IMG/VR virus record: IMGVR_UViG_2740892258_000020
Length of the DNA: 25,906 nucleotides
Direction: 5' to 3' (one strand)
From: a virus
Taxonomy: Duplodnaviria; Heunggongvirae; Uroviricota; Caudoviricetes
The notes beneath the pieces were generated by a model. The model searched no databases, had not been told where the DNA came from, and worked only from the letters and a program-made list of their open reading frames with translations. Both the position numbers and the translations under genes were made by a program. Below, piece after piece: positions 1,219 through 25,466 of the stretch. Positions within the stretch are counted from its first letter, which is position 1. Every line of letters begins with the position of its first letter.

Positions 1219-1617
1219 ATGTACGGAACATGCGAAACGCTATGCCGGGAGCTGGCAGCAAAGTATCCGGGAGACGCGCCGCTGATGCTGGTTATCTGGT
1301 CCCCGGAAGAAATTCAGGCCCTCGCTGACGGAATGGATATTTCCCTGTCCGATCATGAAATCAGGACTGTCCTGGCGCGCCTGGAGGACATCCCGGAAGA
1401 CCAGCGGACTGAATCCGGTATTTCTTCCGGTGCGGCGATGGAGATCATCAATAACGTGAGAGAAAACCGCCAGGTGACCGTCCCTGCTGAACTGCTGGCG
1501 TCCCTGATTCAGACCGCCGAACAGGCACTGTGGAAACGTGAGTGGGCCGCCCGTGTGTACCACGGTGTATCTGTAATTTTAAATAACTCTCCCTGGATAA
1601 AATCTTCAGAAGCATAA
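1219..1617 (+). CDS. hypothetical protein (132 aa); C-terminus probably altered by the rearrangement junction near 1567
   Basis: ATG at 1219 preceded by GAAGGAGACGAGA (GGAG-type RBS). The ORF-track start at 952 lies inside the IS1 fragment in a different frame from insB. GC-rich coding sequence switches to AT-rich after ~1567. Confidence 0.5.
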   Translation: MYGTCETLCRELAAKYPGDAPLMLVIWSPEEIQALADGMDISLSDHEIRTVLARLEDIPEDQRTESGISSGAAMEIINNVRENRQVTVPAELLASLIQTAEQALWKREWAARVYHGVSVILNNSPWIKSSEA

Positions 1618-2408
1618 AAAAGAGGCTGGCCCGGTATTCTCTCAAATAAAAAACGAGCATTTTTAAATCGACTGACATCCGGAAGAGTTGATACTTTAAA
1701 AGTAAGCCCTAATCCGTCAATTTTATAACCTGGAGATGAGGCTTCAAGGCACGCGCTTATTGCAGTGGAATCGTCATTTATACCATCACCAACAGCTCCA
1801 AAATCTTTGGGGCTAATAGCATCACGCATTTTATCCTGGAACGTTCGGTACACAGCCCCAGAACCATACTGAATAAACCAACCAAAACCACCAACAACCC
1901 CGGAGATTGCAGCATCGACATAATTACGCATTGAGCGATTATTTACAGCGTCCTGCTCAAATGATGGATCTGCAAGGTTAGAAATTTTGTTTTGCTTTGC
2001 ATCGTAATATTTTGCAAGCAAAGATGGTTTCATCAATGCACGTCTGAACCACCCAAAACATTGCTGGATCAGCATCGTCAGGTAGTCAAAGGCATCTTCA
2101 TGCACTTCGGGGAAAAATTTTCCCTGATTGCGAAGGTCTGTCTCCTGCACTACATCAAGCACACGATCTATCGTAATTCGCCATCCAGTAGCAAGCGGAG
2201 ACGGAAGAACCACAGAACCGCCACTATAAGTGCCCGCCCCAGTTACCGTATAACCGGTATCCAGAACCAATTCTGTTACGTTTCCGTTCAGGTCAGACAC
2301 CTGAACAACCAGGTCTGATTTTCTGAAAACTCGAAAAGTATACGGAAACGATGTCGTAACGCCGTTACCGGTGTATTCGTTGTGGTCAACTTCGGTTGAG
2401 ACCGTCAT
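1509..2408 (-). pseudogene. truncated tail fiber/tailspike: N-terminal virion-attachment domain plus the start of a pectate-lyase-like beta-helix (depolymerase) domain; genuine sequence ends near residue 280 (~1567)
   Basis: N-terminus MTVSTEVDHNEYTGNGVTTSFPYTF...DLVVQV is the recurring podovirus tailspike N-terminal pattern; PKDFGAVGDGINDDSTAI is a typical start of a right-handed beta-helix depolymerase domain. Only ~90 residues of that domain are present before the ORF runs into unrelated GC-rich sequence. GGAG RBS 8 nt upstream of the ATG. Confidence 0.6.
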
Positions 2409-2461
2409 GTTAAATCTCCAGATAGTCGCAGCACCCGTTGCGCCGCATATCTGGTTATTCT

Positions 2462-2483
2462 ATTACCTGGAAAACCACATATG
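2462..2483. promoter_or_regulatory. conserved 22-bp element ATTACC-N5-AACCACATATG, copy 1, upstream of the tailspike gene
   Basis: ATTACCTGGAAAACCACATATG here and ATTACCAATTTAACCACATATG at 22241..22262; both lie 30-75 bp upstream of a minus-strand late gene start. Confidence 0.45.
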
Positions 2484-2511
2484 GATAGAAAGGCTGTAAA
2501 TACGAATAGAT

Positions 2512-2527
2512 ATTACCTTTCAGGTAA
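2512..2527. promoter_or_regulatory. operator-like palindrome ATTACC-TTTCA-GGTAA, site 1, in the tailspike / 85-aa gene divergent region
   Basis: Inverted repeat TTACC-N5-GGTAA; one of five copies in the window, all intergenic. Confidence 0.55.
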
Positions 2528-2564
2528 TTTGCAAAACGTGCTGGATAGCAAACAAATTATTTGC

Positions 2565-2584
2565 TACTGTATAAATATACAGTT
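2565..2584 (+). promoter_or_regulatory. LexA (SOS) box immediately upstream of the 85-aa gene
   Basis: TACTGTATAAATATACAGTT matches the E. coli LexA consensus TACTGTATATATATACAGTA at 18 of 20 positions with the CTGT-N8-ACAG core intact; it ends 20 nt before the ATG and overlaps the likely -10 region. Confidence 0.7.
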
Positions 2585-2603
2585 ATTGCATGGAGAAGAT
2601 AAG

Positions 2604-2861
2604 ATGCAGCAGTATCACTATCCACTGGAAGACGGATTTACCGAAAGGATTCACACGCCGGGAGGCGTCAGGTCACTGGTGGAGGGATCGCACTTGATGA
2701 AATTACTCCGGGATCTCGATAAGGATGGATTTAATGTCGATGGCCCACTTGCCGAACTGACTGCACTGATTAACTACGTCACCAGCTCACAGATGTCTAT
2801 GCAGGATCTGCAAACACATCTCGACTATTGTGCCGAACAATTACGAAAACAAACCCGGTAA
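2604..2861 (+). CDS. small protein (85 aa) that is a standalone copy of the Bro-N antirepressor C-terminal domain; predicted SOS-inducible
   Basis: ATG at 2604 with GGAG 9 nt upstream (ORF-track start at 2481 is an unlikely extension). Residues ~15-75 (IHTPGGVRSLVEGSHLMKLLRDLDKDGFNVDGPLAELT...DLQTHLDY) align with the C-terminus of the 4247..4942 protein (IHSPSGVLGLTENSLLMNLLNQLQEDGHDVSGAAAELT...DIQTHAEY). Confidence 0.6.
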   Translation: MQQYHYPLEDGFTERIHTPGGVRSLVEGSHLMKLLRDLDKDGFNVDGPLAELTALINYVTSSQMSMQDLQTHLDYCAEQLRKQTR

Positions 2862-2868
2862 ATTTAAA

Positions 2869-2884
2869 GGCCGCAAGAGCGGCC
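2869..2884. terminator. shared hairpin GGCCGC-AAGA-GCGGCC between convergent genes; U-tract on the minus-strand side
   Basis: Perfect 6-bp GC stem directly after the stop of the minus-strand toxin-like gene and 8 nt after the stop of the 85-aa gene; followed on the minus strand by TTTAAATTT. Confidence 0.45.
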
Positions 2885-2885
2885 A

Positions 2886-3392
2886 TTAACAGTCGTAAAA
2901 TTCCGGGTCCCACAAACTTGCATCGCGCGGCATGGATTCTAAATTTTTCAGCCGCAAAATTCTGTCACACTCGACAAGAAGTTTTTGTTTTTGTTCGTCA
3001 ATTTCTACTTTTTTGTGTGCTGGCTCATCCCAGTAATCCAGAAGAAACGCATGTCGCTCAGACGTTACAAGATAAATCACATACACATCACTGGTTGGTA
3101 TTTTTTTATGCTTGTTGGTGGTCTTGTCTTTCTTCCCGGATGCCCAGTTTTTCCAGCATTGTTCCGTACCGCTCTCACCAAACTTGTCAGTATAGTTTCC
3201 GATGTTTACGTGAACGTGGCGTATGTGATATTCCAGCATCTCTTTCGGTGGATCCCGAAACAGAGTGTCCTTTCCGAAATCCTTATGATGACCGTAGCGC
3301 CAGTGATCTATGAACGCGTTTTTGATAGGTATTAGCTCAGGGTCCTTCCCAAAAATTCCAGGGTGAACCAACCCCTGGAATTTATTCAGCAT
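2886..3392 (-). CDS. YafO-family toxin-like protein (168 aa), probable mRNA-interferase type toxin
   Basis: Motifs resembling E. coli YafO as I recall it: PGIFGKD (YafO PDIFGRD), HVHVNIGNYTDKF (YafO IHLANENNPF), VYVIYLVTSERHAFLLDYWDEPAHKK (YafO HLVYCQGAFDEQAWLLIAILKPEPHK), plus a Lys-rich insertion. Start at ATG 3392..3390 with AGGAG 10 nt upstream; it overlaps the stop of the upstream gene by 11 nt. The ORF-track start at 3497 would give an implausible Arg/Ser/Cys-rich N-terminus. Confidence 0.5.
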   Translation of the reverse strand: MLNKFQGLVHPGIFGKDPELIPIKNAFIDHWRYGHHKDFGKDTLFRDPPKEMLEYHIRHVHVNIGNYTDKFGESGTEQCWKNWASGKKDKTTNKHKKIPTSDVYVIYLVTSERHAFLLDYWDEPAHKKVEIDEQKQKLLVECDRILRLKNLESMPRDASLWDPEFYDC

Positions 3393-3801
3393 CGTCGTAG
3401 AGCTCCTGAGCCATATCTTCGGCAGTGCGTGCAAACATCCTGCGCGAGATTGCATGAGATTTCTCGACGGACATCTTTGGGACCTCATGCATAACATTTT
3501 TGGGAGTTGTGTAATAGCCTATTACAATTTTCACACCTGACTTATGATTAATATCAGCATAATATACTTCTTGTTCAGACGTTTCACGACGAACATAATC
3601 TGCCAGTTTTCCACATTTAAATTCCCCTCCCTGATGTTTTAAAATCTCCTCAACTGCACTATTTTCAGTGAAATACCGAATAAGAAATTTCTGTCCAGAC
3701 TCTTCAGCATGAGGTATAACAGTATTATTGGAAGCCCGAACAATGGCCTTACTCAATATTTCATGGTCTTTATTTTTTTCTGATTTCCTCAAATGCTGCA
3801 T
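3382..3801 (-). CDS. unknown 139-aa protein translationally coupled to the toxin-like gene; candidate antitoxin or sensor partner
   Basis: ATG at 3801 with GAGAG upstream (ORF-track start at 3837 is TTG). Its stop lies inside the first codons of the downstream gene. Does not resemble YafN/Phd-type or RelB/RHH antitoxins that I can recognise. AT-rich. Confidence 0.6.
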   Translation of the reverse strand: MQHLRKSEKNKDHEILSKAIVRASNNTVIPHAEESGQKFLIRYFTENSAVEEILKHQGGEFKCGKLADYVRRETSEQEVYYADINHKSGVKIVIGYYTTPKNVMHEVPKMSVEKSHAISRRMFARTAEDMAQELYDDAE

Positions 3802-3933
3802 TACTGTAGCTCTCTTCGTGTTCACGGGCACCCCCAACTACCTCTAGGGTAAACATTCTATCGAAAGTATACGCATACTGGCAAAAAAATAGGCAGGTAT
3901 TTTCTGAAATGGGATCAATCAAACCACATAGGG

Positions 3934-3977
3934 TTGAAATAACGTGAGTTATGCATTTATTATTACCTTTGCGGTAA
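3934..3977 (+). promoter_or_regulatory. sigma70-like promoter (TTGAAA-17/18-TATTAT) overlapped at the -10/+1 region by operator palindrome site 2 (ATTACC-TTTGC-GGTAA, 3962..3977)
   Basis: Good -35 and -10 hexamers with correct spacing; palindrome begins inside the -10. Points toward the Bro-N gene. Confidence 0.5.
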
Positions 3978-4069
3978 ATTTACATCGCACTCCTCTTGTG
4001 CCATAGTAATCGGGCACTGGAAAAATCCAGTGCCGGGATTGGCGTCCCGGATTACTAAAAGGCGCATTC

Positions 4070-4090
4070 ACCGCGCAAGCGGTTTTTTTA
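4070..4090 (+). terminator. intrinsic terminator-like hairpin (CCGC-GCAA-GCGG with GNRA loop, then 7 T) inside the 5-prime leader of the Bro-N gene
   Basis: ACCGCGCAAGCGGTTTTTTTAT about 100 nt downstream of the promoter and about 155 nt upstream of the Bro-N ATG; preceded by two further stem-loops (4011..4036 and 4034..4050). Confidence 0.4.
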
Positions 4091-4246
4091 TGCGTATAGC
4101 ACGGCCACATTCGTATTATGGTGGGCTGTGTGGGGGCACCGAAAGGTGCGCCGGGTCCTTTTAGCCGGTTACGCCAACCCTGCACAGTTCACCACCAACC
4201 GATTGGCGTCGGTAGTGGTGATTAACCAGACTAAAAGGTAACCACT

Positions 4247-4942
4247 ATGACAGCTACAAAAAGCACGTCCATTTTTTCTTTCGAATCCCAAGCCGATATA
4301 CGGGTAATCGTCATTAATGGTGAGCCATGGTTTATCGCTTCAGATGTTTGTCGGGCTATAGGCATAGCAAATCATCGAGATGCTGTTCGAAAACTTGATG
4401 ATGATGAGAAGGGCGTCGCTTCAACCGACACCCCTGGCGGTGAGCAAGAATCGATCATCATCTCCGAGTCAGGCCTCTACACACTGATCCTCCGCTGCCG
4501 CGACGCAGTGACACCAGGCACTATCCCCTACCGCTTTCGTAAATGGGTTACAGGTGAGGTTCTTCCTCAGATCCGCCGCACCGGAAGTTACATTAAAAAC
4601 TCGCTCCCGCAGGAAGAACGCATAAAGATGGTTGCCGACCAGGTAGCCAACGCCACAGCATCAGCAGTGATGCAGGCAATGAAGATAGAGAACAAAACCT
4701 ACAGTGCCCCACTGAAGCCCGGCTACCGCAGCCTGATTCATTCGCCGTCTGGTGTTCTCGGCCTGACGGAGAACTCACTGCTGATGAATCTGCTGAACCA
4801 GTTACAGGAAGACGGGCACGACGTATCGGGCGCGGCGGCGGAGCTGACCACCATGTTCTGCTACATCGTCGGTGTGAGCAAGTGCCTGCGTGATATCCAG
4901 ACGCACGCGGAGTACATCAACGACAAGGCTGGGTTCTTCTGA
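4247..4942 (+). CDS. Bro-N domain phage antirepressor-like protein (231 aa) with a C-terminal domain shared with the 85-aa protein
   Basis: N-terminus FSFESQADIRVIVINGEPWFIASDVCRAIGIANHRDAVRKLDDDEK...ESGLYTLILRCRDAVTPGTIPYRFRKWVTGEVLPQIRRTG is the canonical Bro-N (phage antirepressor N-terminal) signature. Confidence 0.8.
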   Translation: MTATKSTSIFSFESQADIRVIVINGEPWFIASDVCRAIGIANHRDAVRKLDDDEKGVASTDTPGGEQESIIISESGLYTLILRCRDAVTPGTIPYRFRKWVTGEVLPQIRRTGSYIKNSLPQEERIKMVADQVANATASAVMQAMKIENKTYSAPLKPGYRSLIHSPSGVLGLTENSLLMNLLNQLQEDGHDVSGAAAELTTMFCYIVGVSKCLRDIQTHAEYINDKAGFF

Positions 4943-4979
4943 CGGGCGGCGGCACATGGATGTGCCTTTAAAATAATCA

Positions 4980-5023
4980 TTGGCGATGTGATGTAGATTC
5001 GCGTAATATTACCTTACGGGTAA
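4980..5023 (+). promoter_or_regulatory. sigma70-like promoter (TTGGCG-18-TAATAT) overlapped by operator palindrome site 3 (ATTACC-TTACG-GGTAA, 5008..5023)
   Basis: Same promoter/operator geometry as at 3934..3977; about 60 nt upstream of the 210-aa gene. Confidence 0.45.
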
Positions 5024-5082
5024 GAAAGCGTTTTTAATCTTCCCTTCAAAACGCGTCCTGTAGCCAAACATGGGAGGACGAA

Positions 5083-5715
5083 ATGAAAACAAATACAACA
5101 AGAAAAGCGATGCCATACATTATCCCAGAAGCAGATTTCGACAGAAAACTGAACATGTCTGAGAAGAACACTAGTCACACCGAAAGCTACTTAGCGAAAG
5201 GTGTGGTTGATTTCGTTCTTCCGGGATTCACAACACCTTATGGTTATCGCCTTGTAAAATCTTGTAATGGCGATCATTACAGAATGATTACTACCAGCGA
5301 TACTCCAGAAACGGTGTATGCGGTTAAGTTAATCTTTCGGGAAGATATCGTCGAAGCTAAAAGAACATGTACGCAGATCATGGTATGGCGTACGCCTAAT
5401 GTTATTCATGACCGTGCTGTTCATGGTTTGCCTCAGATTTTTTTTCAGTTCTTCCTAGAGCAATATGCGATCGTTGTATCTGATGAGCAACAAACAATCG
5501 ATGGGAGAAGATTCTGGGAAAGAATGATTTCTTGGGCTATAAACACCCCGGGATATAATGTATACGTTTCAGATGGCTCTGAAGAAGATAGACCTCTTAG
5601 CTTCATGACATCATGGGATGATTTCTATAGCCAGTGGGCTGATTTCTGTTGGGGCAGTGATAAAGATGTGCATACCCACAGACTACTGGTTATAAGCAAA
5701 GATAAACTGCATTAA
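5083..5715 (+). CDS. hypothetical cargo protein (210 aa), monocistronic
   Basis: ATG with GGGAGGA RBS 5 nt upstream; followed by a strong intrinsic terminator; AT-rich; no recognisable motif. Confidence 0.7.
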   Translation: MKTNTTRKAMPYIIPEADFDRKLNMSEKNTSHTESYLAKGVVDFVLPGFTTPYGYRLVKSCNGDHYRMITTSDTPETVYAVKLIFREDIVEAKRTCTQIMVWRTPNVIHDRAVHGLPQIFFQFFLEQYAIVVSDEQQTIDGRRFWERMISWAINTPGYNVYVSDGSEEDRPLSFMTSWDDFYSQWADFCWGSDKDVHTHRLLVISKDKLH

Positions 5716-5719
5716 TAGA

Positions 5720-5742
5720 AGCCCGCAGCGCGGGCTTTTTTG
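5720..5742 (+). terminator. rho-independent terminator AGCCCGC-AGC-GCGGGCT followed by TTTTTT
   Basis: Perfect 7-bp GC-rich stem and six T immediately after the stop of the 210-aa gene. Confidence 0.75.
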
Positions 5743-5813
5743 TGGACGAAACAAAAGTCAGTGCTACACTCATTGACGCCACATTGAGGTGGCTTATAGA
5801 TGGAAATTTCACA

Positions 5814-5975
5814 ATGAAAAAAGCATTTGCTGCACTGTTCGTTTTGTTGTCTCTGGTAGCTTCAACTCAGGCCTTTGCCGGTCGTTGTCAGCACGACAGC
5901 GATACTGCTGCTGACGGCTCCCGCTGCGGTGGGCGTTCTGCGGATTCCCGCCCGGGTGGCGGTGGCATTCGTTAA
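5814..5975 (+). CDS. possible small secreted peptide (53 aa): Sec-type signal peptide then a Gly/Asp/Arg-rich 31-aa mature region with two Cys
   Basis: MKKAFAALFVLLSLVASTQAFA|GRCQHDSDTAADGSRCGGRSADSRPGGGGIR. Upstream TTGACG-16-TATAGA promoter-like hexamers; weak or no SD. Bracketed by terminators at 5720..5742 and 5981..5998. Confidence 0.35.
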   Translation: MKKAFAALFVLLSLVASTQAFAGRCQHDSDTAADGSRCGGRSADSRPGGGGIR

Positions 5976-5980
5976 AAACA

Positions 5981-5998
5981 AGGCCGCGAAAGCGGCCT
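5981..5998. terminator. bidirectional hairpin AGGCCGC-GAAA-GCGGCCT; T-run on the minus-strand side terminates the 283-aa gene
   Basis: 7-bp stem with GAAA loop; on the minus strand followed by TGTTTTTAAC. Confidence 0.65.
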
Positions 5999-6004
5999 GT
6001 TTGA

Positions 6005-6856
6005 TCACTGTGCAGTTTTCGCTGATCGATTTTCAGCTCTAAATTCAAGAACCGTTTCAATATTTCTTTCCTTCAGCATATCAATAACATTTTTATTCAT
6101 TTGACTATCACTGGTTAATAACTGGTAAACGTTGCTTCTCTCTTTATCAGAGTTTTCTTTAACAGCTGCTTTGCATGCCAAATGCTTATTGAAATTTTCT
6201 ACATCGCTAGTACAGGAATTTACGGCTGCTGATGAAATATCAGACGCTGAAGAAACACCATCATCCAAACGTTTTATAGCATTTTCTATACATGAGTTAA
6301 GGGAATAAACGACAACTGAGCGATACCCTTCAGACGCACACCATTCTAAATTTCTTGAAGGATCGAGTGGTTTTACTTCGCTGGATTGAATTAACTTGTC
6401 AAAAACTGACTTATATTCAATCTGTTTTTTATCTATAGCCCATACTTCAGTAGCTGATTTATAATTCCCCGTATGCCTATTAACATCAAATCCATGTTTT
6501 ATAAGCAAATCTGCCCATGAAAGATTTATTGATTCATTGTTATGAGGCCATTTTCCTGTCAGAACCGCCCCCATAGACCCCATATATCCGCCATATGATG
6601 GTATAGCACCATGGCTCAGTAACTTCTCAGCAACCACAGGGCAATTAATTACATAAGAGGCGTAAAGCCCATTCCATAAAGCCCCTCTATAGTAATCGCC
6701 ACGATTAGGTTCTTTTAAGTCGATAGCCTTTGATAATTGTTCACACGTTTTGCATGCATCAAAGTTATCCTTATTGCATTGCAATGAACTGGCAGCTGTA
6801 GGATTTACAGAGACTATTGAAAGCACTATGCCAAAAAACAAATTTATTTTTTTCAT
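6005..6856 (-). CDS. secreted/periplasmic cargo protein (283 aa) with N-terminal signal peptide, many Cys, and possible ankyrin-like repeat motifs
   Basis: MKKINLFFGIVLSIVSVNPTAASS signal-like N-terminus; motifs PVVAEKLLSHGAIP and ADLLIKHGFDVNRHTG resemble ankyrin repeat consensus (tentative). AT-rich; ATG 1 nt after the stop of the upstream ejection-protein gene. Confidence 0.7.
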   Translation of the reverse strand: MKKINLFFGIVLSIVSVNPTAASSLQCNKDNFDACKTCEQLSKAIDLKEPNRGDYYRGALWNGLYASYVINCPVVAEKLLSHGAIPSYGGYMGSMGAVLTGKWPHNNESINLSWADLLIKHGFDVNRHTGNYKSATEVWAIDKKQIEYKSVFDKLIQSSEVKPLDPSRNLEWCASEGYRSVVVYSLNSCIENAIKRLDDGVSSASDISSAAVNSCTSDVENFNKHLACKAAVKENSDKERSNVYQLLTSDSQMNKNVIDMLKERNIETVLEFRAENRSAKTAQ

Positions 6857-6857
6857 C

Positions 6858-9800
6858 CTATTTCATCTGCTCTTCAACTTTATTTAGTAACGGTGATATT
6901 GCCCACAGGTTCTGAAAAGGTAGCATTTTACGGACCGCGTGGGTTTGCTGGCTGTCAAATTCTCCGTTAAGTACACCATTCGCAACCGTCGCGGCATCAC
7001 CGCCAAGATCAAAGGTAGGACCAAGTAAAGCACCAATAGCATTACGACTCTGAAACCTTGATACCGGAGGCGCACCAAACATCGCGCCAAGACCAAACCT
7101 ACCGCCGCTTATGTTCTCAACGGTATTCAGCGGCTCAGAGAGCCAGCCAAGCATTCCGCCCCGGTCGATCCCCTCTTTCACAAGGTTATTCCAGCTGTAG
7201 TCAATATCGCGACCGCTTAACTTCTGTTTCATCATATAGACCATTGAGCCAAGCGCAATCGTGCCAAGCGCACCAAGATAGAATGCAGCATCGCCCTGCT
7301 GGATACCAGATACCAGCACCCTGTTATGCTGTGCGAAGATAAACGTTTTGAACTGCGTGATCATCTTCCAGCCTTCTTTACTAAAAAACAGCGGTGTATC
7401 ACCTACGCCAGGCGTTACAATCACTGAGTCTACATCTTTCAGCACTGCAGACTGGAAAATCTCTCTAGCGAAACGGTCATCCCACAGATGACTATGCCCG
7501 GTTAACAGCCCGTCCATATCCTCTCCGTGCTTCCCGAATTGCTCCCCGATTCGGCGCAGAACATCTTCATTGATGCCGACCTGTGCCATCTTCCGCATTT
7601 CACTTTTGGAGAGCGTGCCACCAGCAGAAACTTGGCGAGCCGCGTCAAGTATCCTCGACTGCACTATCATCCCGGACCATGATTTAAGTGCGCTGTTCCA
7701 CTGATTCATCAGCGTCCAGTTACCGAATTTCTGCGTCATCCAGTTCAGGCCTCGCTCAGCGGCGCTTCTCCGGCTATATGGGTCAGTAAGATCCGCTATA
7801 GCCTTTGTACGCGTAGACAGGACATAATCAAGCCCAACGGCCATTTCTCGCAAATCCCTGGTTGCAATTTTCACTGAGTCCATATTTTTAAGCATGCTTA
7901 CCATTGGTCCGAGAGATTTTCTCAGGCCATGCTGCATCATCGGTCGCATCAGATCAGTTGCAGCGGAGACAGTCATTCCACCAAGCAAACGGAGGAAGTT
8001 AATATTCCTAGCAACTCGCCCGGCACGAACAAAGAAACTGCGTGGATCTTGAGGTGCACCGTAAGTACCAAGCAGTCGATCACGCATAGCCGTAATATCC
8101 CTAATATCAGCCTCCCGTTGCTTCTCAAGAACTGCACGTCGTTTAGGCGTTTTAGCCTCTTTTATTAGCCGGGTATATTCCTCACTAACCTGACGGATTT
8201 GCTCCCCCATATCTTTACGGCCAAACTGCGCAGTCAGCTCAATTTCTGGTGCCACCTGCCGGAGATAACTTTCCATGATGTAGTTAACATCTGATTCAAG
8301 AAAATCTTCTATACGCTCATCAGGAATAAGCAGCGTTCTGCTTTTAGTGAAACCAGCCCGACCAACGAGTCTCTCTGGGATAATATCGGCTGGTACAAGC
8401 CCGGAAGGTGCACCTATTATTTTATTCACGATCTCGTCAGCAGCGTCCTCTGCTTCCTCTCGGGATAGAGGCTCCATCTGCTTCAGTGCTCGTTCGCGGC
8501 TTGCATTCAGCCTTGTGGTTGAATTTGCCCGTTTTTGCAGTCGGCGAAGCTCAGAACGATATTTCCGTGGATTATCCAGCAACTCCATATGGCGCTGATA
8601 GACAGGAAGCTCACTCTTTGCCTGCGCTATATCATCAAGGCGTGTTTTAAGGTCAGAGCTTTCTTTCATCATTCTTGCCTGAAGTTTTTCTGATGAAGTC
8701 TCGGCCAACTCTTTTTCTATTCTTGTAAGACGCGCCTGTGTGTCAGTCTCCTGAGATATAAGCTTATTTCGTTTATCCAGTTCTTCCATGAGTAGAATTT
8801 TTTTACCAGACCATTTCTCCGCTTCAGCGATTTCACTAGCGAGAGCATCAGCGCGCGGTGCCGATTCCTCTGCAGTTTTTAGCAATGAATTTATCCTTTC
8901 AATTCGCTGACCTGCCTTGTCAGCACCTTTGGCACTAATCCCTTGTATCCAGTTGGCAATTCGCCCTCTGAATTCAGTGCGGTCGGAAAGTATCTTATCG
9001 AACTTATAAATGCGGGGAAGATAACTTTTCGCCGTCACGACATCGATATCCTCAGGAAGGATCCCCAGTTCCTGCATACGGGCTTTTGTGGTCTCGAAAA
9101 TGGGGCGGATTCTGGCAGCTGCTTGTGAAACCTCAGGAATATCACTCTGATCACCACGGCGCATAGCCATGCCAACAGCTTCATTGAAATCAATAAAGTT
9201 CATCCTCTTCACGCCGCGGGCGCTAACAGATTTGCTGTACTGCTGGTAAGCATCACGAGTGGCTTCCATCTGCTTATAAAGCATGGCGTCGTATTGCTTA
9301 ATCTTAGTCTCGACTGCCGTAAACGTAGCCAACCCCTCATCATTTTTGGCGAAGAAATAGTTATTTTCGGCAAGCTGCTGGTTAATCTGACGGGAGACAA
9401 GAGATGGTGATTGCGCCAAGCGGCCAGCAGGAGTGACACTCAACGTTTTGTTAGCAAGTCCAAGTCCAGCGAGCTGTTCCTGATCGAGTGTGGTATTGAA
9501 AACCTGAGCTGCACCAATGCTTTGAGGAGAATCCATACCTCGCAAATGATTACCTACTGAGTTAACCACTGCCTCGCGCGCGCCAGGTCCAGCAAGTAGC
9601 TGTGCACCAGCACCAAGGATCCCACCAACGAGAGCATCAACAACAACGTTCGATACGCTCTCCATCGGTGAGCGAGCTTCCTGAGTGGCCTGTAATGCGG
9701 CCTCTGAAGCAACACTGCCAGCAGCATTCGCCAGGGCAAAACGCCCGGCTGTTTCTGCAATACGACCGCCACGAACGACAGCGCCGAACGGAATAAACAT

Positions 9801-10247
9801 AGAAATCGCATTGAATGGATCTGCTAATCTCATTGCTACAGAAGAGACTGTACCAGCAAATCCCAAGCCTGAATTGTATTCCATGTCAGCTCTCTGCTGA
9901 TCGATTCGATGTTTAATTGCCATTGTTTCTTCAGGCGAACCGGAGTTGATAAACGAATCTGCAAAATCTTCATAGCCTTTAATATCTGCTGCATCGTTAT
10001 CAAATGGGTTATATCCTTCAACCCTGTCAAACTGACTGAAAGGAGCACTGGCAATAAAGCTACCCAGCGTGTTATCTATACGAAATGCTGCTTGTCTAGA
10101 CCTTTGAACGCGTTGATCACTGGTAAATGGGTTCACAGCAGAAAGCAAAGAAGGTGTTTCCATATAGAAATTACTGTCATCAGGTGCTGCTATTTGCTGA
10201 ATATCCTCGCCAAGCAACTCTTTAGGATCCTGTTCATATATCGGCAT
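6858..10247 (-). CDS. large internal virion / DNA ejection protein (1129 aa), T7 gp16-position analogue
   Basis: Last and largest gene of the tube/core gene run; long coiled-coil-like central region (KTAEESAPRADALASEIAEAEK...); start overlaps the upstream gene stop. Assignment by position and size. Confidence 0.55.
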   Translation of the reverse strand: MPIYEQDPKELLGEDIQQIAAPDDSNFYMETPSLLSAVNPFTSDQRVQRSRQAAFRIDNTLGSFIASAPFSQFDRVEGYNPFDNDAADIKGYEDFADSFINSGSPEETMAIKHRIDQQRADMEYNSGLGFAGTVSSVAMRLADPFNAISMFIPFGAVVRGGRIAETAGRFALANAAGSVASEAALQATQEARSPMESVSNVVVDALVGGILGAGAQLLAGPGAREAVVNSVGNHLRGMDSPQSIGAAQVFNTTLDQEQLAGLGLANKTLSVTPAGRLAQSPSLVSRQINQQLAENNYFFAKNDEGLATFTAVETKIKQYDAMLYKQMEATRDAYQQYSKSVSARGVKRMNFIDFNEAVGMAMRRGDQSDIPEVSQAAARIRPIFETTKARMQELGILPEDIDVVTAKSYLPRIYKFDKILSDRTEFRGRIANWIQGISAKGADKAGQRIERINSLLKTAEESAPRADALASEIAEAEKWSGKKILLMEELDKRNKLISQETDTQARLTRIEKELAETSSEKLQARMMKESSDLKTRLDDIAQAKSELPVYQRHMELLDNPRKYRSELRRLQKRANSTTRLNASRERALKQMEPLSREEAEDAADEIVNKIIGAPSGLVPADIIPERLVGRAGFTKSRTLLIPDERIEDFLESDVNYIMESYLRQVAPEIELTAQFGRKDMGEQIRQVSEEYTRLIKEAKTPKRRAVLEKQREADIRDITAMRDRLLGTYGAPQDPRSFFVRAGRVARNINFLRLLGGMTVSAATDLMRPMMQHGLRKSLGPMVSMLKNMDSVKIATRDLREMAVGLDYVLSTRTKAIADLTDPYSRRSAAERGLNWMTQKFGNWTLMNQWNSALKSWSGMIVQSRILDAARQVSAGGTLSKSEMRKMAQVGINEDVLRRIGEQFGKHGEDMDGLLTGHSHLWDDRFAREIFQSAVLKDVDSVIVTPGVGDTPLFFSKEGWKMITQFKTFIFAQHNRVLVSGIQQGDAAFYLGALGTIALGSMVYMMKQKLSGRDIDYSWNNLVKEGIDRGGMLGWLSEPLNTVENISGGRFGLGAMFGAPPVSRFQSRNAIGALLGPTFDLGGDAATVANGVLNGEFDSQQTHAVRKMLPFQNLWAISPLLNKVEEQMK

Positions 10248-12994
10248 TATTTGCCCCCTGCGTATATATTGCTCGGAAGGTAATTGGCTGAACCATAACC
10301 GAATGGTTTGGTCAGATCTGGAGGAGTATATCCATCTTTATTGCTGAACTGCGGCAGCGGATTGCCTTCTCTCCGCACTCTAGCCTCATCAACACGCTGT
10401 TGCTGGAACTGAATGGTTTGCCTGTACATTGGAGATGTCAGCTGATCCGGCTTGAAACGAACAGGGAGACCATTTTCTCCAATATAATTTCTCGGTTCTA
10501 TCGCTCCGTTTGCGTCAGGCTGTAAAACCATAACAGCATAACTCCTATCCCTTGCCGTAAGGCCATCAGAAACAAGTATTAAGTCCGTATCACTGCGAGG
10601 ACCGCCAAAGGATTTTGATTTAAGCTCGCGTTTTTCCTGCTCCCACTGCCCCTGTATCCAGTTACCAGCACCATTATTTACTCCGTACAATGCCTCAGGT
10701 GCATACTTCATAACCTCTGCTTTGCCATTAACTGTAGAAACTCCCCAGGTGGTTCTGATCATGGCATTGGTCATTTTCTCAGCCTGTTCTGCATCGCCAC
10801 CTGTCTGTACAAAGTTAGCATCGTAAATTGTCTGGTAATCTCGCTGATAGGCCGCATTTGATTTTCCTGGATCGGTAATATCCGGAGACCACGAACCAAA
10901 GGAAGTCAGACTGCTGGCGTTATTTTGTGCAGCAGTTGCCCTCGCCGCGACATATTTTTTGTCTCGCATGGCAGTGGAAAGCATCTGTTTCATTCGGTCA
11001 TCCTGTTGGAACACCTGGCTGTAAGCCATATCAACAGCCTTATCCTCCGGCACGCCAGCGCGGGAATAATCGTAAACCTTGCCGTAAAATGCCATCGTAC
11101 TTTTATCAAGTGTTGCCGCTGCCGCCGGATTATTATCAAATAACTGACCGTAGAATTTTGCCATCGGGACAACCAGCGCAGGATCTCTTGATGTTGCTCC
11201 ACTGTTAAGCATTGTTTTAACCTGAGTTGGTATCATGCCGCTTTTAGTTGTGACGGTGACCAGTGTATTGATGCTCTGCGGATCAGATATGGAAAACGAA
11301 GGCGCGATATCCTGCGCGAAATAACGGTCTACCGCTGCCTGATTGTTTTTGTCGTTCGGGTCCAGCGGGAAGTTATTTTGCATTGAAGACACGAACCTGT
11401 TTCTTCCCTGCTGAATCTCCCACTCCCTATCCATCTCTTTAAATTTGGCCTGCATTTTCTCCCAGCGTTGCTGGTTAGCTGCAAATCCAGGAGCGTTTGG
11501 ATCCTGTGGACGTAAACGTTCAAGAATGTCTTGTCGTCCTTCTGGAGTGAGGTCTTTAGCGGCACCAATGACACCTCCATATTGTATCTGCGCCTGCATA
11601 TCCTTCCACTTCATAGCGCCAATGCGCGGACCATTGGCCCGGATAAAATCGTCCTCAGAAGGTAACTTCTCAGGTTTCAATCCTTCATCAAGGGCTGAAT
11701 ATGCATCTTTAACTACGGTGCTAAGCTGGTCCGCATACTGCTGGCGGTACTGATTTCTCAGCTCATTAGCCTGCCTCAATGCCTGTATTTGCATTTGAGG
11801 GCTCATAGCGTCAAATGCCGCATTGCCCGTATAACGCTTAGGTGAATCAAGGTTAGTTAGACCAAGGGATGCCGAGATACCAGTTTCAAGCTGTTCGGTG
11901 CTATAAGGCATACTGCCATTTTCGTGTTTAATAATCCCAGCACATAAAGCAGCTAGTGTCTTTGGGTTAGAGATATCAAGCTGATCATTCTCCCCAACAC
12001 CAAGCTCACTACACAATGCCCTAATATAAGCATCAGTATTATTACCATCACTAGCCGGAGCATAGCGATTAACAATCTCGCTAACGGTGTCATAGCCTTG
12101 ACGCTGGTAAGACAACATATTTTTACCCAACGCGCGGATTCCATGCTCAGGGGTAGCAAACGTTGCAAAACGTCCATCGCTACCGATCTGACCTTCCCAC
12201 GGGTTAGATTTGCTCGCTTCAATATTACCAGGGTTATTATTACGTAAACCACGAGCATCCAATGAATTACCATGTGATATTGCACGACTCACACCATCAA
12301 GATCCCCTGGCTCTCCATTAACCTGAAGAAACTCGTTGTATTTTTGAGCGATATTTCCTATCCATGCTTGCTGCCCCATTTGTTCCTTGAGCTGAGTTTT
12401 CTGCTGAACACGCCACCCATCAGGAAGCCCATGTGCATCAGCGTATTGATCAATAGATTCAAATCGCTGCTTGGCTAAATCGACAAATGCTTGGTTATCG
12501 CTATATAGCCCCGCAGACTGAGTGACAGCCAATGCATTTCCTGACAAATACGTTTGATCTTGGAATTGCTGAAACTGCCCAACTTCATATCGACGTGCCT
12601 GATTGTAATAAGACTGCATAGACTGCTGGAGTTGAAAGGATAATTTATTCCTTTCCTCACTTTCAGGAATTGAGCCTAATAATGCCTGAGCCCTTTCCTG
12701 CATATTTTTCATAACAGCGTCACTCTGACCAAGAGCGTTTTTACCCTGTTTAGAAATCAGCCCATTTTCAGGGTTGTTAATCTGGTCATCTGCAAATTGG
12801 TTAAATTGCAGTAACGCCTCCTGAGCCATAGCAACATTCGCTTTCTGCCTGGCTTCACCATATGCCACCGCATACTGATCTGCGACATTCGCCAGCACCT
12901 GACCTGCTTGAGGAACATCGAAGGTCTGAAAACCACCGGTTTGCACACCACGACTTTGCACCTGGCGTCCGGATGTAGTAGGAACAACTGGCAT
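10247..12994 (-). CDS. internal virion protein (915 aa), T7 gp15-position analogue; contains a conserved-looking block (LRNNNPGNIEASKSNPWEGQ...FATFATPEHGIRALGKN) that may be a cell-wall-interacting domain
   Basis: Position and size in the ejection-protein run; Gln/Asn-rich. Domain call is tentative recollection only. Confidence 0.5.
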   Translation of the reverse strand: MPVVPTTSGRQVQSRGVQTGGFQTFDVPQAGQVLANVADQYAVAYGEARQKANVAMAQEALLQFNQFADDQINNPENGLISKQGKNALGQSDAVMKNMQERAQALLGSIPESEERNKLSFQLQQSMQSYYNQARRYEVGQFQQFQDQTYLSGNALAVTQSAGLYSDNQAFVDLAKQRFESIDQYADAHGLPDGWRVQQKTQLKEQMGQQAWIGNIAQKYNEFLQVNGEPGDLDGVSRAISHGNSLDARGLRNNNPGNIEASKSNPWEGQIGSDGRFATFATPEHGIRALGKNMLSYQRQGYDTVSEIVNRYAPASDGNNTDAYIRALCSELGVGENDQLDISNPKTLAALCAGIIKHENGSMPYSTEQLETGISASLGLTNLDSPKRYTGNAAFDAMSPQMQIQALRQANELRNQYRQQYADQLSTVVKDAYSALDEGLKPEKLPSEDDFIRANGPRIGAMKWKDMQAQIQYGGVIGAAKDLTPEGRQDILERLRPQDPNAPGFAANQQRWEKMQAKFKEMDREWEIQQGRNRFVSSMQNNFPLDPNDKNNQAAVDRYFAQDIAPSFSISDPQSINTLVTVTTKSGMIPTQVKTMLNSGATSRDPALVVPMAKFYGQLFDNNPAAAATLDKSTMAFYGKVYDYSRAGVPEDKAVDMAYSQVFQQDDRMKQMLSTAMRDKKYVAARATAAQNNASSLTSFGSWSPDITDPGKSNAAYQRDYQTIYDANFVQTGGDAEQAEKMTNAMIRTTWGVSTVNGKAEVMKYAPEALYGVNNGAGNWIQGQWEQEKRELKSKSFGGPRSDTDLILVSDGLTARDRSYAVMVLQPDANGAIEPRNYIGENGLPVRFKPDQLTSPMYRQTIQFQQQRVDEARVRREGNPLPQFSNKDGYTPPDLTKPFGYGSANYLPSNIYAGGK

Positions 12995-13572
12995 CAGTAA
13001 CCTCCTATTTTGAATCGGGAGTCAGAATTCATAAAACCTGAGTTAGATAACATTGGCGTCCCACCACTAGATGTACTTCCTTTAGAGAACGGACTCCACG
13101 TTCCGCCGCCCAACTTATATGCACCGTATGCTTTTAGTGGTGCTGTTAACAAAGTGCTGGTCATCGATGATTTAGCAGCCGACTGAGCAGCAGCCCCCTG
13201 TGCCTGAGCATTCATTCCCTGAACCTGATACCCATATGCCTCACGCTGAGCATTATTCACTGTCGTTAACGCATCAAGAGTGCCGAACTGAGCATTATCC
13301 GCAAAAACGTCAAGAGCTGTTCCGCTACTTAATTCCGCACCGGTAGCCCCCATAGTGGCCGCCGCAGTGCCTGAGCGTTGACGCATTTCACGACGACGCT
13401 GATCTGCTTCAATATTCCCACGATTGATTGAATCCTGTGCCTGAGCTTCAGCAATTTCAGCATTCCGATCAGCTATGGCTGACTGGTATTTTGCCTGCTT
13501 GCTCTGGCTGTACATTGACGCGGCTGTGGATGCCACTGTGACGGCAACCAAAGCGATGGCTGGGTTACACAT
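12994..13572 (-). CDS. internal virion protein (192 aa) with hydrophobic N-terminal segment, T7 gp14-position analogue
   Basis: MCNPAIALVAVTVASTAASMY hydrophobic N-terminus, Ala/Gln/Gly-rich body, size close to T7 gp14 (196 aa), correct position. Confidence 0.45.
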   Translation of the reverse strand: MCNPAIALVAVTVASTAASMYSQSKQAKYQSAIADRNAEIAEAQAQDSINRGNIEADQRRREMRQRSGTAAATMGATGAELSSGTALDVFADNAQFGTLDALTTVNNAQREAYGYQVQGMNAQAQGAAAQSAAKSSMTSTLLTAPLKAYGAYKLGGGTWSPFSKGSTSSGGTPMLSNSGFMNSDSRFKIGGY

Positions 13573-14036
13573 TATTTTCTCTCCATGTGAAATCTGTGGA
13601 AATTAAGACCAATAGCACCATAAGGCGCGGCTTCTTCAAGCCTGAATCCAAGCCAGTGCAGCCATGCTTTGGCAACATGGTTTCGCTCGTCGACGTAGTT
13701 TTCCAGGCGCGGATAAACTGCCAGCATCTGCTGCAATACAGGGCGGCAGTGGCGCAGAAATGTCTTCTGATATTTTTCAATACGGCTGGTCCCGACCAGC
13801 CAGGGCGTACCATTGCCACCGATCATTGACGCCGGAGATACGCCAAACATGGTTACCAGTTCTCCGTTCGCGAACCCTGACCAGGCCATAGTCGCAGTAC
13901 GCAGACCAACACGCAGCGCATCTTCGGTAGTCATCAGTGATACCGCATACAGTTCGTCAATATCAGCCTGACGAACATCCGGCAAAATCATCTGAAGATG
14001 CTCTTCGGTTGCGGGAATAATTTGAACATCGATCAT
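13572..14036 (-). CDS. small virion-associated protein (154 aa), T7 gp13-position analogue
   Basis: Position between the tail-tubular-B-like and gp14-like genes with 1-nt overlaps on both sides; no motif confidently recognised. Confidence 0.35.
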   Translation of the reverse strand: MIDVQIIPATEEHLQMILPDVRQADIDELYAVSLMTTEDALRVGLRTATMAWSGFANGELVTMFGVSPASMIGGNGTPWLVGTSRIEKYQKTFLRHCRPVLQQMLAVYPRLENYVDERNHVAKAWLHWLGFRLEEAAPYGAIGLNFHRFHMERK

Positions 14037-16507
14037 CAGAATCCCCCAACAGTAAGGCGAGGAATAACGGCAAGAACAGACAGCGGCAACGGATCAAGCT
14101 GACGGATTTTTACACGTCCGTTTTTGCCCCAGTTACTGTCCAGTTTCACTTCTACTTTTCCGGTAGCATCATCAACAGGATCATCGTAGAACTCGAATTC
14201 ACGCTGTGGATATTCGTACCATTTACCGCCGGGCGTAGTCGCCCAGATGCCGCGACTGGCATTCACAACCAGAGTAACGGAGGGGATCACCTGTTTTTTG
14301 TCCAGCAGCGTTTCCTGTCCGTTAATGTTGATATCCAGTGTTTCGAATTCAGCAGTTATTGGCAGGCCGATGTGCACTACAGCCCCCGGAGATTCCAGCG
14401 TGACGGCACCTCCGGAAACCACTTTCTGTGGTTCCACGTTCGCATCAGAGAGAATGTTTACGGTCTGGCCTTCAAGATGAGACAGGCCTCCAAATGTCCG
14501 GCGCGCCATCTGCCAGTTCGTGGTGGCCACATTCCTGAGGGATGGCGGGACGTTCCTGTTAGCACGAACCACTACAGCGGTATTGCTGGTTACAGAAATA
14601 ATGTCGCAACGTAATTCTTTTGACACTTCATCGCCAGTATCAGGATCAGTTCCGGTATAAGGGAACTGTAGTTGCGCGCCGACATCACTACTGGTGAAGT
14701 ACGCACCACCAGAAACACTGATTGTATATTCCGCACGGTAATCCCATTCACCAGAACCACCAGTGATGGTCATCGTTCTGTCAGACGTATTTCTTCCATC
14801 ATAGCTAAGGCCAGAATCAACAAAGAAAGCATCTTCATCGCTGGTAAATAAACGGCTGGACAGTCGCTCGATGTATCTCACTGTTTGCCCGTTAACGGTT
14901 CGGTTAATGACGAAATACACCGCATCTTCATTGCCTTCGCTGATACTGCATGTGCTTTCATATTTTCCGGTACTGGACTGTGGTGCCCATGCAAAAACCT
15001 GTTGATCACGCAAATAGGTCATCACCAGTAATTTACCGTCATCACGAATGCAGAAGGCGCTGGAGTAAGGGACAATAGAGAAGCACCAGTCAACAATGCT
15101 GTGCTTCTGAAAAAGATGATTGGCAAGGATAGTAAGGTCGTTCCCCTGATAGCCGTCAACATCGAATGAGTAGGCCAGATCACGGACAACACTGCCTTTC
15201 TCCTGGACGAACAGAGCAATATTCGCCACGGCAATTGGTGGGACATTGCTCGAACCATTTGATCCCTGAGAGCTGAATGCAAATGATGATGGAGTTAATA
15301 CTTTGTTCTGGTCGCCGGTGATGACGTACTCACCTCCGGAAGTCAGTGCCACCAGCGAACCGACATCAATCAGGTGGCGGATCTCATTAACCTGACGCCC
15401 GGCATAGGTGTAGATAATTCTGTCGTCATCCTGCGTAGGATTGCTTTTGCCAAAATCCTTATAATCCCCAGTACGGCTGGCCCAGATAGTCTGAGGGAAC
15501 GCTGTCGATGCGGCGAAGTAAAGACGTTGTTGATAATAAACAACCGTGCCAGGATAACCGTTAACACTGTTCCAGGCATATTTAGCCCATTTATAGCTGG
15601 CATTATCCTCGCCAACGACCTGCGAAGGGATATAGGAAATCACCTCAGCAGTTGCAGTAGTGCCATTTACAGCAGTTATACGGGCAATGCCAAAACCACT
15701 GTGCAGATACTCCCACTCAATGCCAGTATCATCATCACCGGATCCGCCCCAGCCATCCCATGATGTGCCTTCTGTATGCGAAGGGCGCAAAGTGCCTGTT
15801 TTGCCTGCTGTAACGGCGCGATAGTAGTTACTGTCTGCACGGCGAATATCGCCAATCGACGTACTCTTACTGGTTTCCCATACCGGCACAGAATCCACTG
15901 CAGGCTGTTCCAGATAGAACAATTTGCCTACCTGCTCCGCGCCAAAAATAGAGGCGCTTGCCGTTAACGTAATTGTCCCGGTGCTGGCGCTGGCATAAAC
16001 CGTCACTGACTCATCAATATTGATATCTTCAAATGGCCCGTTCTTCGTTACCACATCAACCAGTTGCCAGTTGTCATGCGCATAGCGGCGCAGCTCTTTC
16101 GGCGGGTATGCCGGGTGAACCAGCGTAAGCACGTCGGCGCTTTGCGTGAATTTAATTCGGAACAGATCGGCTTCAGTATATGGCGTGGCAATTTCATAAA
16201 TAACATTGCTGCTGTTCAGCACCAACGCACCATCTTTGATAACGCGCATGTACTGGTGTCCGAACTCCAGAGCATAAGTCTGAACCGTCGAGAATTGGAA
16301 CGGGATCAGGCGGCATTTCCGATTTGGGTATTTGGCGGCACCGACAAAACGCGTACCAGGTCGATTCTCAACGCCGCCATACTGCCGCACGATAAAGTTA
16401 TCGCACTTGCGCAATGCTACCTGGTACTTCGCCATGTCAATACGCCCGTACAACGACGGTCCAATCTCACCACCGGCAAAGCTGGGCTGGATCCAACTGA
16501 TAGCCAT
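14036..16507 (-). CDS. tail tubular protein B-like (nozzle) protein (823 aa)
   Basis: Size and position match T7 gp12; N-terminus (PSFAGGEIGPSLYGRIDMAKY...GGVENRPGTRF) loosely resembles the gp12 N-terminus as I recall it. Confidence 0.5.
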   Translation of the reverse strand: MAISWIQPSFAGGEIGPSLYGRIDMAKYQVALRKCDNFIVRQYGGVENRPGTRFVGAAKYPNRKCRLIPFQFSTVQTYALEFGHQYMRVIKDGALVLNSSNVIYEIATPYTEADLFRIKFTQSADVLTLVHPAYPPKELRRYAHDNWQLVDVVTKNGPFEDINIDESVTVYASASTGTITLTASASIFGAEQVGKLFYLEQPAVDSVPVWETSKSTSIGDIRRADSNYYRAVTAGKTGTLRPSHTEGTSWDGWGGSGDDDTGIEWEYLHSGFGIARITAVNGTTATAEVISYIPSQVVGEDNASYKWAKYAWNSVNGYPGTVVYYQQRLYFAASTAFPQTIWASRTGDYKDFGKSNPTQDDDRIIYTYAGRQVNEIRHLIDVGSLVALTSGGEYVITGDQNKVLTPSSFAFSSQGSNGSSNVPPIAVANIALFVQEKGSVVRDLAYSFDVDGYQGNDLTILANHLFQKHSIVDWCFSIVPYSSAFCIRDDGKLLVMTYLRDQQVFAWAPQSSTGKYESTCSISEGNEDAVYFVINRTVNGQTVRYIERLSSRLFTSDEDAFFVDSGLSYDGRNTSDRTMTITGGSGEWDYRAEYTISVSGGAYFTSSDVGAQLQFPYTGTDPDTGDEVSKELRCDIISVTSNTAVVVRANRNVPPSLRNVATTNWQMARRTFGGLSHLEGQTVNILSDANVEPQKVVSGGAVTLESPGAVVHIGLPITAEFETLDININGQETLLDKKQVIPSVTLVVNASRGIWATTPGGKWYEYPQREFEFYDDPVDDATGKVEVKLDSNWGKNGRVKIRQLDPLPLSVLAVIPRLTVGGF

Positions 16508-22281: not shown

Positions 22282-22318
22282 TTGACATTTAACGCGTTAA
22301 TTATTACCTTTCAGGTAA
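22282..22318 (+). promoter_or_regulatory. TTGACA -35-like hexamer followed by operator palindrome site 4 (ATTACC-TTTCA-GGTAA, 22303..22318); possible plus-strand promoter for the tRNA/moron unit
   Basis: Consensus TTGACA at 22282..22287 with the palindrome centred where a -10 would be; the -10 match itself is poor. Confidence 0.4.
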
Positions 22319-22650
22319 CCAAAGGGCTCATTCTGGTTACTAACCTGACTGGCTTGTCGTTAAATTAAACAGGTGGAGTGAGCTTTTATTTTGAGCAGTA
22401 CGGCGTATGGCACATGCGCCGATAGCGGTCTGGATACGTTTAAGGGGCACCCTCCCTTGCTCGGGCAAACGAACCAGGTAGCCGGAATGTGCAAGTCGAG
22501 CGGTTTTATTCCGCGCACGGGGATTCACCATCCCGGCGATTCGGTGTGACGCCTCGGAAGAGACGAGGGTACAACGATGAGAGCATTTATGGAGCCGCGA
22601 CAAAGTGTGGCGCCTTAACAGGCTAAGTGCTCTCAGCGTTGTGGCATTAG

Positions 22651-25450: not shown

Positions 25451-25466
25451 AACCACCGTGGTAATA

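Follow-up and report, generated by a model that had tools for sequence, protein, structure and literature searches.

The YafO family (PF13957, about 1,000 entries) is one of 13 toxin families that share the BECR fold; its operons keep the antitoxin-toxin gene order and its toxins degrade mRNA in a ribosome-dependent manner (PMC11980606). YafO itself is among the least studied RelE-type toxins. The present analysis concerns a two-gene cassette related to this family, found in a 25,906-nt stretch of Caudoviricetes DNA (IMG/VR record IMGVR_UViG_2740892258_000020; this whole stretch, as analysed, is called the window). The cassette is best explained, with a probability of roughly 0.7, as a self-contained type II toxin-antitoxin (TA) moron of Uetakevirus-like (epsilon15/phiV10-type) prophages, consisting of a YafO-branch toxin and a modular antitoxin.

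The closest described counterpart is YafN-YafO of Escherichia coli K-12. The two toxins occupy the same sequence neighbourhood, as judged by family-level matches to PF13957 and a 34-bit score with a hidden Markov model (HMM), and in both systems the antitoxin gene precedes a toxin gene that abuts or overlaps it. The differences are nevertheless substantial. The window toxin has 168 amino acids (aa) compared to 132 in YafO, with an insertion of about 20 residues and a C-terminal extension. Its partner is not an antitoxin of the YafN type, having no PF02604 domain and only a 0.25% hhalign probability of relationship. Finally, the cassette is a prophage moron with an operator-like palindrome, whereas the K-12 pair lies in the dinB operon, which is SOS-regulated in that strain.

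Other RelE-type systems are further away. HigB2-HigA2 of Vibrio cholerae (PDB 5mje/5jaa) and other RelE/HigB toxins show only 14% identity to the window toxin, and HigA2 has a recognisable DNA-binding domain of which the partner has none. Moreover, higBA operons have the inverted gene order, with the toxin first (PMC11980606, Table 1). HigBAC of E. coli C496, a defence toxin system activated by the lambda major tail protein, is similar in that a toxin of the RelE/ParE fold is carried by a mobile element and may serve in phage conflict (PMC11980606). As opposed to HigBAC, the window cassette includes no chaperone gene and matches no PADLOC model. Antitoxins of the RelB, YefM and Phd style combine an N-terminal DNA-binding/dimerisation domain with a C-terminal toxin-binding tail, and type II systems are known to "mix and match" their antitoxin modules and toxins. 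The partner described here would follow the same two-part logic as in RelB-RelE, YefM-YoeB and Phd-Doc, with a short, C-terminal, toxin-specific helix. It differs from them in that its N-terminal part has no known DNA-binding fold and comes in at least six unrelated orphan types, swapped next to toxins that are 93–99% identical, and in that promoter control is apparently left to a phage-wide palindrome.

Gene layout and homology of the toxin

The features of the cassette, in window coordinates, are the following.

2862..3962, minus strand: whole cassette (moron), made up of terminator, toxin gene, partner gene and promoter (blastn against phiV10)
2886..3392, minus strand: toxin gene, 168 aa; divergent YafO-family protein with a RelE/ParE (BECR) fold (RefSeq WP_000932553.1)
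3382..3825, minus strand: gene of the partner, the putative antitoxin; 147 aa from GTG 3825 (PGAP) or 139 aa from ATG 3801
3497..3792, minus strand: variable "body" of the partner, residues ~4–102 in the 139-aa numbering (blastn mosaic boundaries)
3382..3496, minus strand: C-terminal tail of the partner, residues ~103–139, VMHEVPKMSVEKSHAISRRMFARTAEDMAQELYDDAE; predicted amphipathic helix and candidate toxin-neutralising segment
3382..3392, minus strand: 11-nt stop/start overlap, ATGCTGAATAA (minus-strand reading)
3855..3884, minus strand: sigma-70-like promoter with −35 TTGCCA (3884–3879), an 18-nt spacer and −10 TAGAAT (3860–3855); consensus scan, 10/12 match
3838..3852, no strand assigned: operator-like palindrome TTACCCTAGAGGTAG (TTACC-N5-GGTAR), from the alignment of upstream regions
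2859..2884, minus strand: intrinsic-terminator-like hairpin GGCCGC-TCTT-GCGGCC followed by TTTAAATTTA, directly after the toxin stop

According to the minus-strand reading and the list of open reading frames (ORFs), the partner ORF stops with TAA at 3384–3382 and the toxin starts with ATG at 3392–3390. An AGGAG sequence at 3407–3403 is placed 10 nt 5′ of the toxin ATG and, taken together with the 11-nt overlap, suggests translational coupling of the partner and the toxin. The initial annotation had described two minus-strand genes overlapping by 11 nt, AT-rich, divergent from an antirepressor gene and closed by their own terminator, and all of this was confirmed: the overlap spans 3392–3382, the GC content across 2800–4000 is 0.38–0.45 compared to 0.49–0.57 in the flanks, a gene for a BRO-N antirepressor lies at 4247–4942 on the plus strand, and the hairpin is found at 2884–2859. 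Its partner of 139 aa corresponds to a real ORF from ATG 3801, but position 3825 (147 aa) is the likelier start because the codon, GTG in the window, is ATG ("MNTKR...") at the homologous position in close relatives. Further upstream, the T-run/TTGCCA and TAGAAT/TACAAT promoter elements are kept in the upstream-region alignment of diverged loci.

The arrangement was compared in 47 loci, comprising 44 loci on viral contigs and three further contigs encoding the toxin relative P0007. Toxin relatives on the viral contigs, nearly all of which are about 40 kb long, are 39–100% identical to the window toxin, and the hosts include E. coli, Klebsiella and others. In every one of the 47 loci, an ORF upstream on the same strand reaches 11 or 14 nt into the toxin gene. 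This ORF has 111–188 open codons in 44/44 viral-contig loci, with an overlap of 11 nt in the close and 14 nt in the distant clades, and the overlap is also kept on the three contigs with P0007, one of which is a 5.6-Mb NCBI chromosome assembly. Because it is kept in 47/47 loci, the coupled arrangement is not a matter of chance, and the proposed antitoxin-then-toxin coupling, including the co-occurrence of the two genes, is thereby borne out. The pair thus shows the generic layout of type II systems: small, co-directional and coupled genes, the antitoxin first, always found together. Next to the identical toxin P0007, the partner is called with 182 aa on L047 (7466–8014) and with 153 aa on L048 and L049 (7553–8014), which may reflect either another choice of start by the gene caller or an exchanged body at zero toxin divergence.

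RefSeq already names the window toxin "type II toxin-antitoxin system YafO family toxin", and the protein falls into PHROG 1651 (unknown function, E 2e-46). Its family is small, with 14 clusters in a search of 5.8 billion proteins; 69 representatives, some of them spurious, passed E ≤ 1e-3 in an exhaustive HMM search of 1.84 billion proteins. The long multi-repeat matches (P0078, P0084 and others) were rejected as relatives, being RCC1-like or other repeat proteins without a match to the HMM of the wider family. PF13957 was matched by 11/15 close relatives (best 1.6e-5) and, at E ≤ 0.01, by 26/47 wider relatives (best 5.5e-14). Relative to the Pfam gathering score of 25 bits, the close relatives scored 17.6–25.4 bits, the upper value belonging to a protein 66% identical to the window toxin, whereas P0050 reached 28.1 and K-12 YafO 135 bits. 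The window toxin itself stays below the gathering score and as a single protein does not enter YafO_toxin.

The relationship becomes clearer on the family level. An HMM built from 47 family representatives scored 34.2 bits against K-12 YafO in two blocks (YafO 5–67 and 83–129), which hold the FG[KR]D, HxH and Y...H motifs. F27, G40, H61, Y107 and H126 are invariant across the family, and of these H61/Y107/H126 align with H62/Y88/H109 of YafO. The roughly 20 extra residues between the two blocks form a CW..W helix and a Lys-rich loop, including SGKKDKTTNKHKK. The earlier reading of three YafO motif blocks interrupted by a Lys-rich insertion was therefore roughly right, in that the motifs and the insert are present, but the HMM gives two blocks; likewise, the suggested kinship with YafO_toxin appears in the PF13957 matches of the family and not in a match of the 168-aa protein by itself. 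The toxin has the alpha/beta fold of the RelE type (RelE/ParE, BECR-fold superfamily), and a PDB sequence search with the toxin-family profile found no solved structure of a relative. Overall, profile-level homology to YafO identifies the toxin as a long and divergent protein of the YafO branch that has a RelE fold. Judging from this homology, it most probably acts as a ribosome-associated mRNA endonuclease.

Constant tail and exchangeable body of the partner

The partner is an orphan. It belongs to no Pfam, NCBIfam or PADLOC family and falls into PHROG 9503 (unknown function, E 3.5e-88), and ten other partner/body types are also devoid of Pfam domains. With respect to YafN, no PhdYeFM domain (PF02604) was found in the partner, an HMM of the partner tails scored −0.3 bits against YafN, and hhalign of the tails against 27 YafN-family sequences gave the aforementioned probability of 0.25%. 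The earlier statement that the partner resembles neither YafN nor any antitoxin that can be named is borne out by these searches. The −0.3 bits and 0.25% also rule out a likeness between the tail and the C-terminus of YafN that was noticed by eye (acidic/aromatic ...E end, I[ST]RR in register). An AF2 model of the partner alone had a mean pLDDT of 45 with only a C-terminal helix, residues 112–137, predicted; such a poor fold outside the helix would be expected of an antitoxin that folds on binding. A short antitoxin peptide starting at an internal Met110 with a GAGG Shine-Dalgarno (SD) sequence was considered and rejected, as other clades have Leu or Ile in place of this Met and every locus keeps the whole ORF open.

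Among 25 partner homologues, the last ~36 residues are almost invariant, whereas the remainder varies widely. The tails of all clades align gap-free with the pattern P-x-[VIL]-K-x-[ML]-[ST]-x-x-E-x-x-x-[IL]-S-x-x-[ML]-...-[FY]-D-x-x-E and are amphipathic at helical periodicity (helical hydrophobic moment 0.88). The tail diverges together with the toxin: relative to the window pair, toxin/tail identities were 99/100, 94/94, 77/82, 61/50 and 43/25%, and the body stayed at 16–36%. The Mantel correlation between toxin and tail (rho = 0.68) was reached by 0/2000 permutations. The helical pattern is kept across clades whose DNA has diverged, which argues for selection on the tail at the protein level.

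The body behaves differently. When L003 was compared by blastn to L007, L008, L010 and L012, phages with 93–99% identical toxins had no homology at L003 3601–3896, i.e., window 3792–3497, and the mosaic breakpoints were identical in 4/4 comparisons (L003 3600 and 3897, corresponding to window 3793 and 3496). The bodies fall into six clusters without detectable mutual similarity and the tails into four clades, and the two combine in different ways: cluster 2 bodies are joined to tails of clade A or clade C, and clade A tails to bodies of cluster 1 or cluster 2. The first 40 residues of the partner are net-positive in 19/20 variants. The preferred reading is a modular antitoxin, in which a toxin-specific tail would bind and neutralise the toxin and the body would be swappable.

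Prophage cargo and its operator-like palindrome

Positions 1552–16250 of the window are 99.99% identical to the prophage of E. coli K1 strain IHE3034, which is integrated beside guaA and carries epsilon15/phiV10-type (Uetakevirus) virion genes and an endosialidase tailspike. Phage phiV10 has no cassette: its blastn homology to the window ends at 2861 and resumes at ~3963–3973, with about 40 nt in place of 1.1 kb. Since the flanks abut in phiV10 without the pair, the two genes with their promoter and terminator form a discrete accessory cassette, that is, a moron, in agreement with the initial annotation of the pair as prophage cargo. At least 80% of the 2700–4250 region is present in 43 of 5426 complete E. 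coli genomes, where the cassette is complete, and a further ~950 complete genomes match only the flanks of this region. Similarly, EC.W1-9 is the only record of the phage collection that spans the whole region, the others matching the flanks only. In different phages, the cassette stands on either side of the BRO gene and in either orientation. No relative turned up in a scan of 100,044 species-representative genomes; the family belongs to the strain-level cargo of prophages. Searches of the literature gave no paper on the cassette.

The palindrome TTACC-N5-GGTAA begins 2 nt after the −10 element of the cassette and would thus cover the predicted transcription start. A search for inverted repeats reported none at the promoter, the arms of the palindrome being too short for the search seed, and it was found from the upstream-region alignment instead. 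It stands 5′ of the partner gene in 44/47 related loci. In the window, 16 matches were counted over both strands compared to 1.48 expected, a number reached by 0/100 shuffles, and the rest of the IHE3034 prophage (L050) contains 11 sites compared to 0.4 expected. Of the latter, two lie between the cro-like gene and the gene of the helix-turn-helix (HTH) repressor WP_000836290.1 and two just downstream of the repressor gene (L050 12718–15875). In several cases, a −10-like hexamer stands directly or shortly before the copy. Other copies in the window are as follows.

2513–2527: palindrome copy upstream of orf2604
3963–3977: palindrome copy at the isrK/C4/antirepressor promoter, abutting its −10
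5009–5023: palindrome copy upstream of orf5083
22304–22318: palindrome copy
25450–25464 and 25468–25482: two adjacent palindrome copies

Overall, the palindrome occurs at about 15 sites of the prophage, mostly intergenic and promoter-proximal. It looks like the operator of the phage immunity repressor or Cro, with a regulon that would include accessory genes. Because it is common to ~15 other prophage sites, including the immunity region, it is not specific to the cassette operon, and it is unlikely that the partner binds it specifically. Instead, the prophage repressor or Cro may repress or tune the cassette operon. Constitutive expression in the lysogen cannot be assumed, since the promoter carries the operator-like palindrome of the phage. 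The operators of the cassette and of the antirepressor operon are 125 bp apart, centre to centre (123–125 bp in related loci), or ~12 helical turns, a spacing that could allow cooperative or looped repressor binding.

Several features of the surroundings were recorded as well. On the far side of the cassette promoter, Rfam places an isrK Hfq-binding RNA at 4014–4089 (plus strand, 76.7 bits) and a C4 antisense RNA at 4114–4199 (plus strand, 77.7 bits), both above the gathering score, and a c4-a1b1 target match at 4001–4053 is sub-threshold. The isrK/C4 region (4001–4199), located 5′ of the BRO antirepressor gene, forms an antisense control region of the antirepressor similar to P1 immI. At its other end, the cassette adjoins a small gene for 85 aa (2604–2861, plus strand), homologous to epsilon15 p19 and phiV10 p24. 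Its product is paralogous to the C-terminal domain of BRO, the antirepressor, and tblastn with BRO matches the same place in several loci at 43–47% identity. In Klebsiella-type prophages (L047 5557–6166, L049 5554–6163), a pair of genes for 86 and 85 aa lies beside the BRO gene, the second with a Pfam DUF1902 domain. We take DUF1902 to be a HicB-like antitoxin domain, which would suggest that the accessory slot collects different small TA-like cassettes. A tRNA-Arg gene follows one of the palindrome sites, at ~22640–22716 of the window according to the IHE3034 annotation. The window leaves the IHE3034 prophage at 1552, where the tailspike gene is interrupted ~285 codons in and meets GC-rich DNA. 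This DNA (1–1551) contains two ORFs of unknown type and recurs in many copies per E. coli genome, in chromosomes as well as plasmids. The junction was found in no complete E. coli genome of the collection and represents a rearrangement, an insertion or an assembly join.

Possible functions of the cassette and their implications

If the cassette is a TA moron, a single promoter would give rise to a bicistronic, translationally coupled mRNA ending at its own terminator. The YafO-like toxin would act as a ribosome-associated mRNA endonuclease that halts translation, and the largely disordered partner would bind and neutralise it through the C-terminal amphipathic helix of ~36 residues. Loss or titration of the labile partner would then free the toxin and stop translation. 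The exchangeable body, which mostly starts with a basic stretch, may be a spacer or degron that evolves fast, or else a module for specificity or sensing. A phage regulator acting at the palindrome, rather than TA autoregulation, probably controls expression. The pay-off would most likely lie in conflicts between phages or between phage and host, in the form of exclusion/abortive infection or of prophage retention. A role in defence by abortive infection is a possibility; PADLOC-DB v2.0.0 gave zero matches for both proteins at E ≤ 1, which leaves a defence function unlisted rather than excluded.

Several observations weigh against this interpretation. The window toxin alone has no match in Pfam (even at E ≤ 10), NCBIfam or PADLOC, and Foldseek returned nothing significant from PDB or BFVD. 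Neither HTH, ribbon-helix-helix, AbrB or Phd domains nor any other known antitoxin domain were found in any partner type. The antitoxin DNA-binding domain with autoregulation that is generic for type II systems is missing as well, given the absence of such a domain and the sharing of the palindrome with other sites. The co-divergence of tail and toxin could partly result from linkage, the tail DNA adjoining the toxin gene, and the coding constraints imposed by the overlap and the SD sequence could also feed this correlation. Finally, the palindrome suggests repression in the lysogen, which is a poor fit with a constitutive prophage defence gene.

A more specific proposal makes the partner an adaptor. 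Its fixed helix would restrain the RNase, and the swapped body would serve as a sensor or decoy that times the release, for instance through contact with a protein or nucleic acid from an invading phage or as the target of a protease; the operon, wired to the immunity operator, would fire with the antirepressor. We regard this scheme as unlikely.

The same TA pair might also have been selected for addiction, killing or arresting the cells that lose the prophage or the cassette and having nothing to do with anti-phage defence. Phd-Doc of prophage P1 is the classical precedent. The disordered partner fits the logic of a stable toxin and a labile antitoxin, and the movement of the cassette between slots in related phages is the selfish spread expected of addiction modules. 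We nevertheless hold addiction to be an improbable driving force, as an integrated prophage is rarely lost, which makes the benefit small, and the toxin is dispensable. Indeed, the relatives P0012, P0013 and P0014 (102–120 aa, one of them on a 32.7-kb contig) are truncated or frameshifted, and hence the toxin can be lost while the locus is kept.

Less probable still is a place of the pair in the developmental programme of the phage. In that case, it would be repressed in the lysogen and fire together with the antirepressor operon upon infection or induction, the RNase shutting down host translation or committing the cell to lysis and the partner delaying or limiting this effect. The position of the palindrome speaks for such a role: it lies directly 3′ of the cassette −10, is found again 125 bp away, adjoining the −10 of the divergent isrK/C4/antirepressor promoter, recurs in the cro/repressor intergenic region and is kept at the cassette promoter in 44/47 loci. 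However, a general mRNase would cut phage transcripts too, and most related phages (phiV10, ZX5) are viable without the cassette, which marks it as accessory and not as part of the core programme. That the 168-aa protein is a RelE-fold protein without nuclease or toxic activity (e.g., a ribosome- or RNA-binding regulator) and the upstream gene merely a co-transcribed accessory would agree with the weak YafO match and lack of a direct Pfam match, with the ~36 residues in excess of YafO, including insertion and C-terminal extension, and with the ParE-type members of the fold that are not RNases (PMC11980606), but is very improbable in view of the His/Tyr/His positions common with K-12 YafO and invariant in the whole family, and of the strict 11/14-nt coupling with a toxin-specific tail in 47/47 loci, which is hard to explain without a need for neutralisation.

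Returning to the TA moron as the preferred explanation, what is new are the modular orphan partner and its wiring to a phage operator, the toxin being a long variant of a known family that RefSeq had already flagged. Should the cassette be an ordinary addiction module, the result amounts to a routine improvement in the annotation of ~1% of E. coli genomes. The cassette defines a long, phage-borne YafO branch whose partner is unrelated to YafN. The comparative data place the likely toxin-binding segment in ~36 residues, which offer a minimal construct for structural and biochemical work. Moreover, the shared palindrome ties accessory morons into the regulatory circuit of the phage, which bears on the timing of prophage cargo expression. 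With unrelated bodies joined to a constant tail beside near-identical toxins, the locus illustrates modular antitoxin evolution in nature on a small scale. Should the body be a sensor, it would show how the trigger specificity of TA-based immunity diversifies, and if the partner indeed works as an adaptor, the cassette would be a phage-encoded TA system in which trigger specificity changes as antitoxin bodies are swapped like cassettes.

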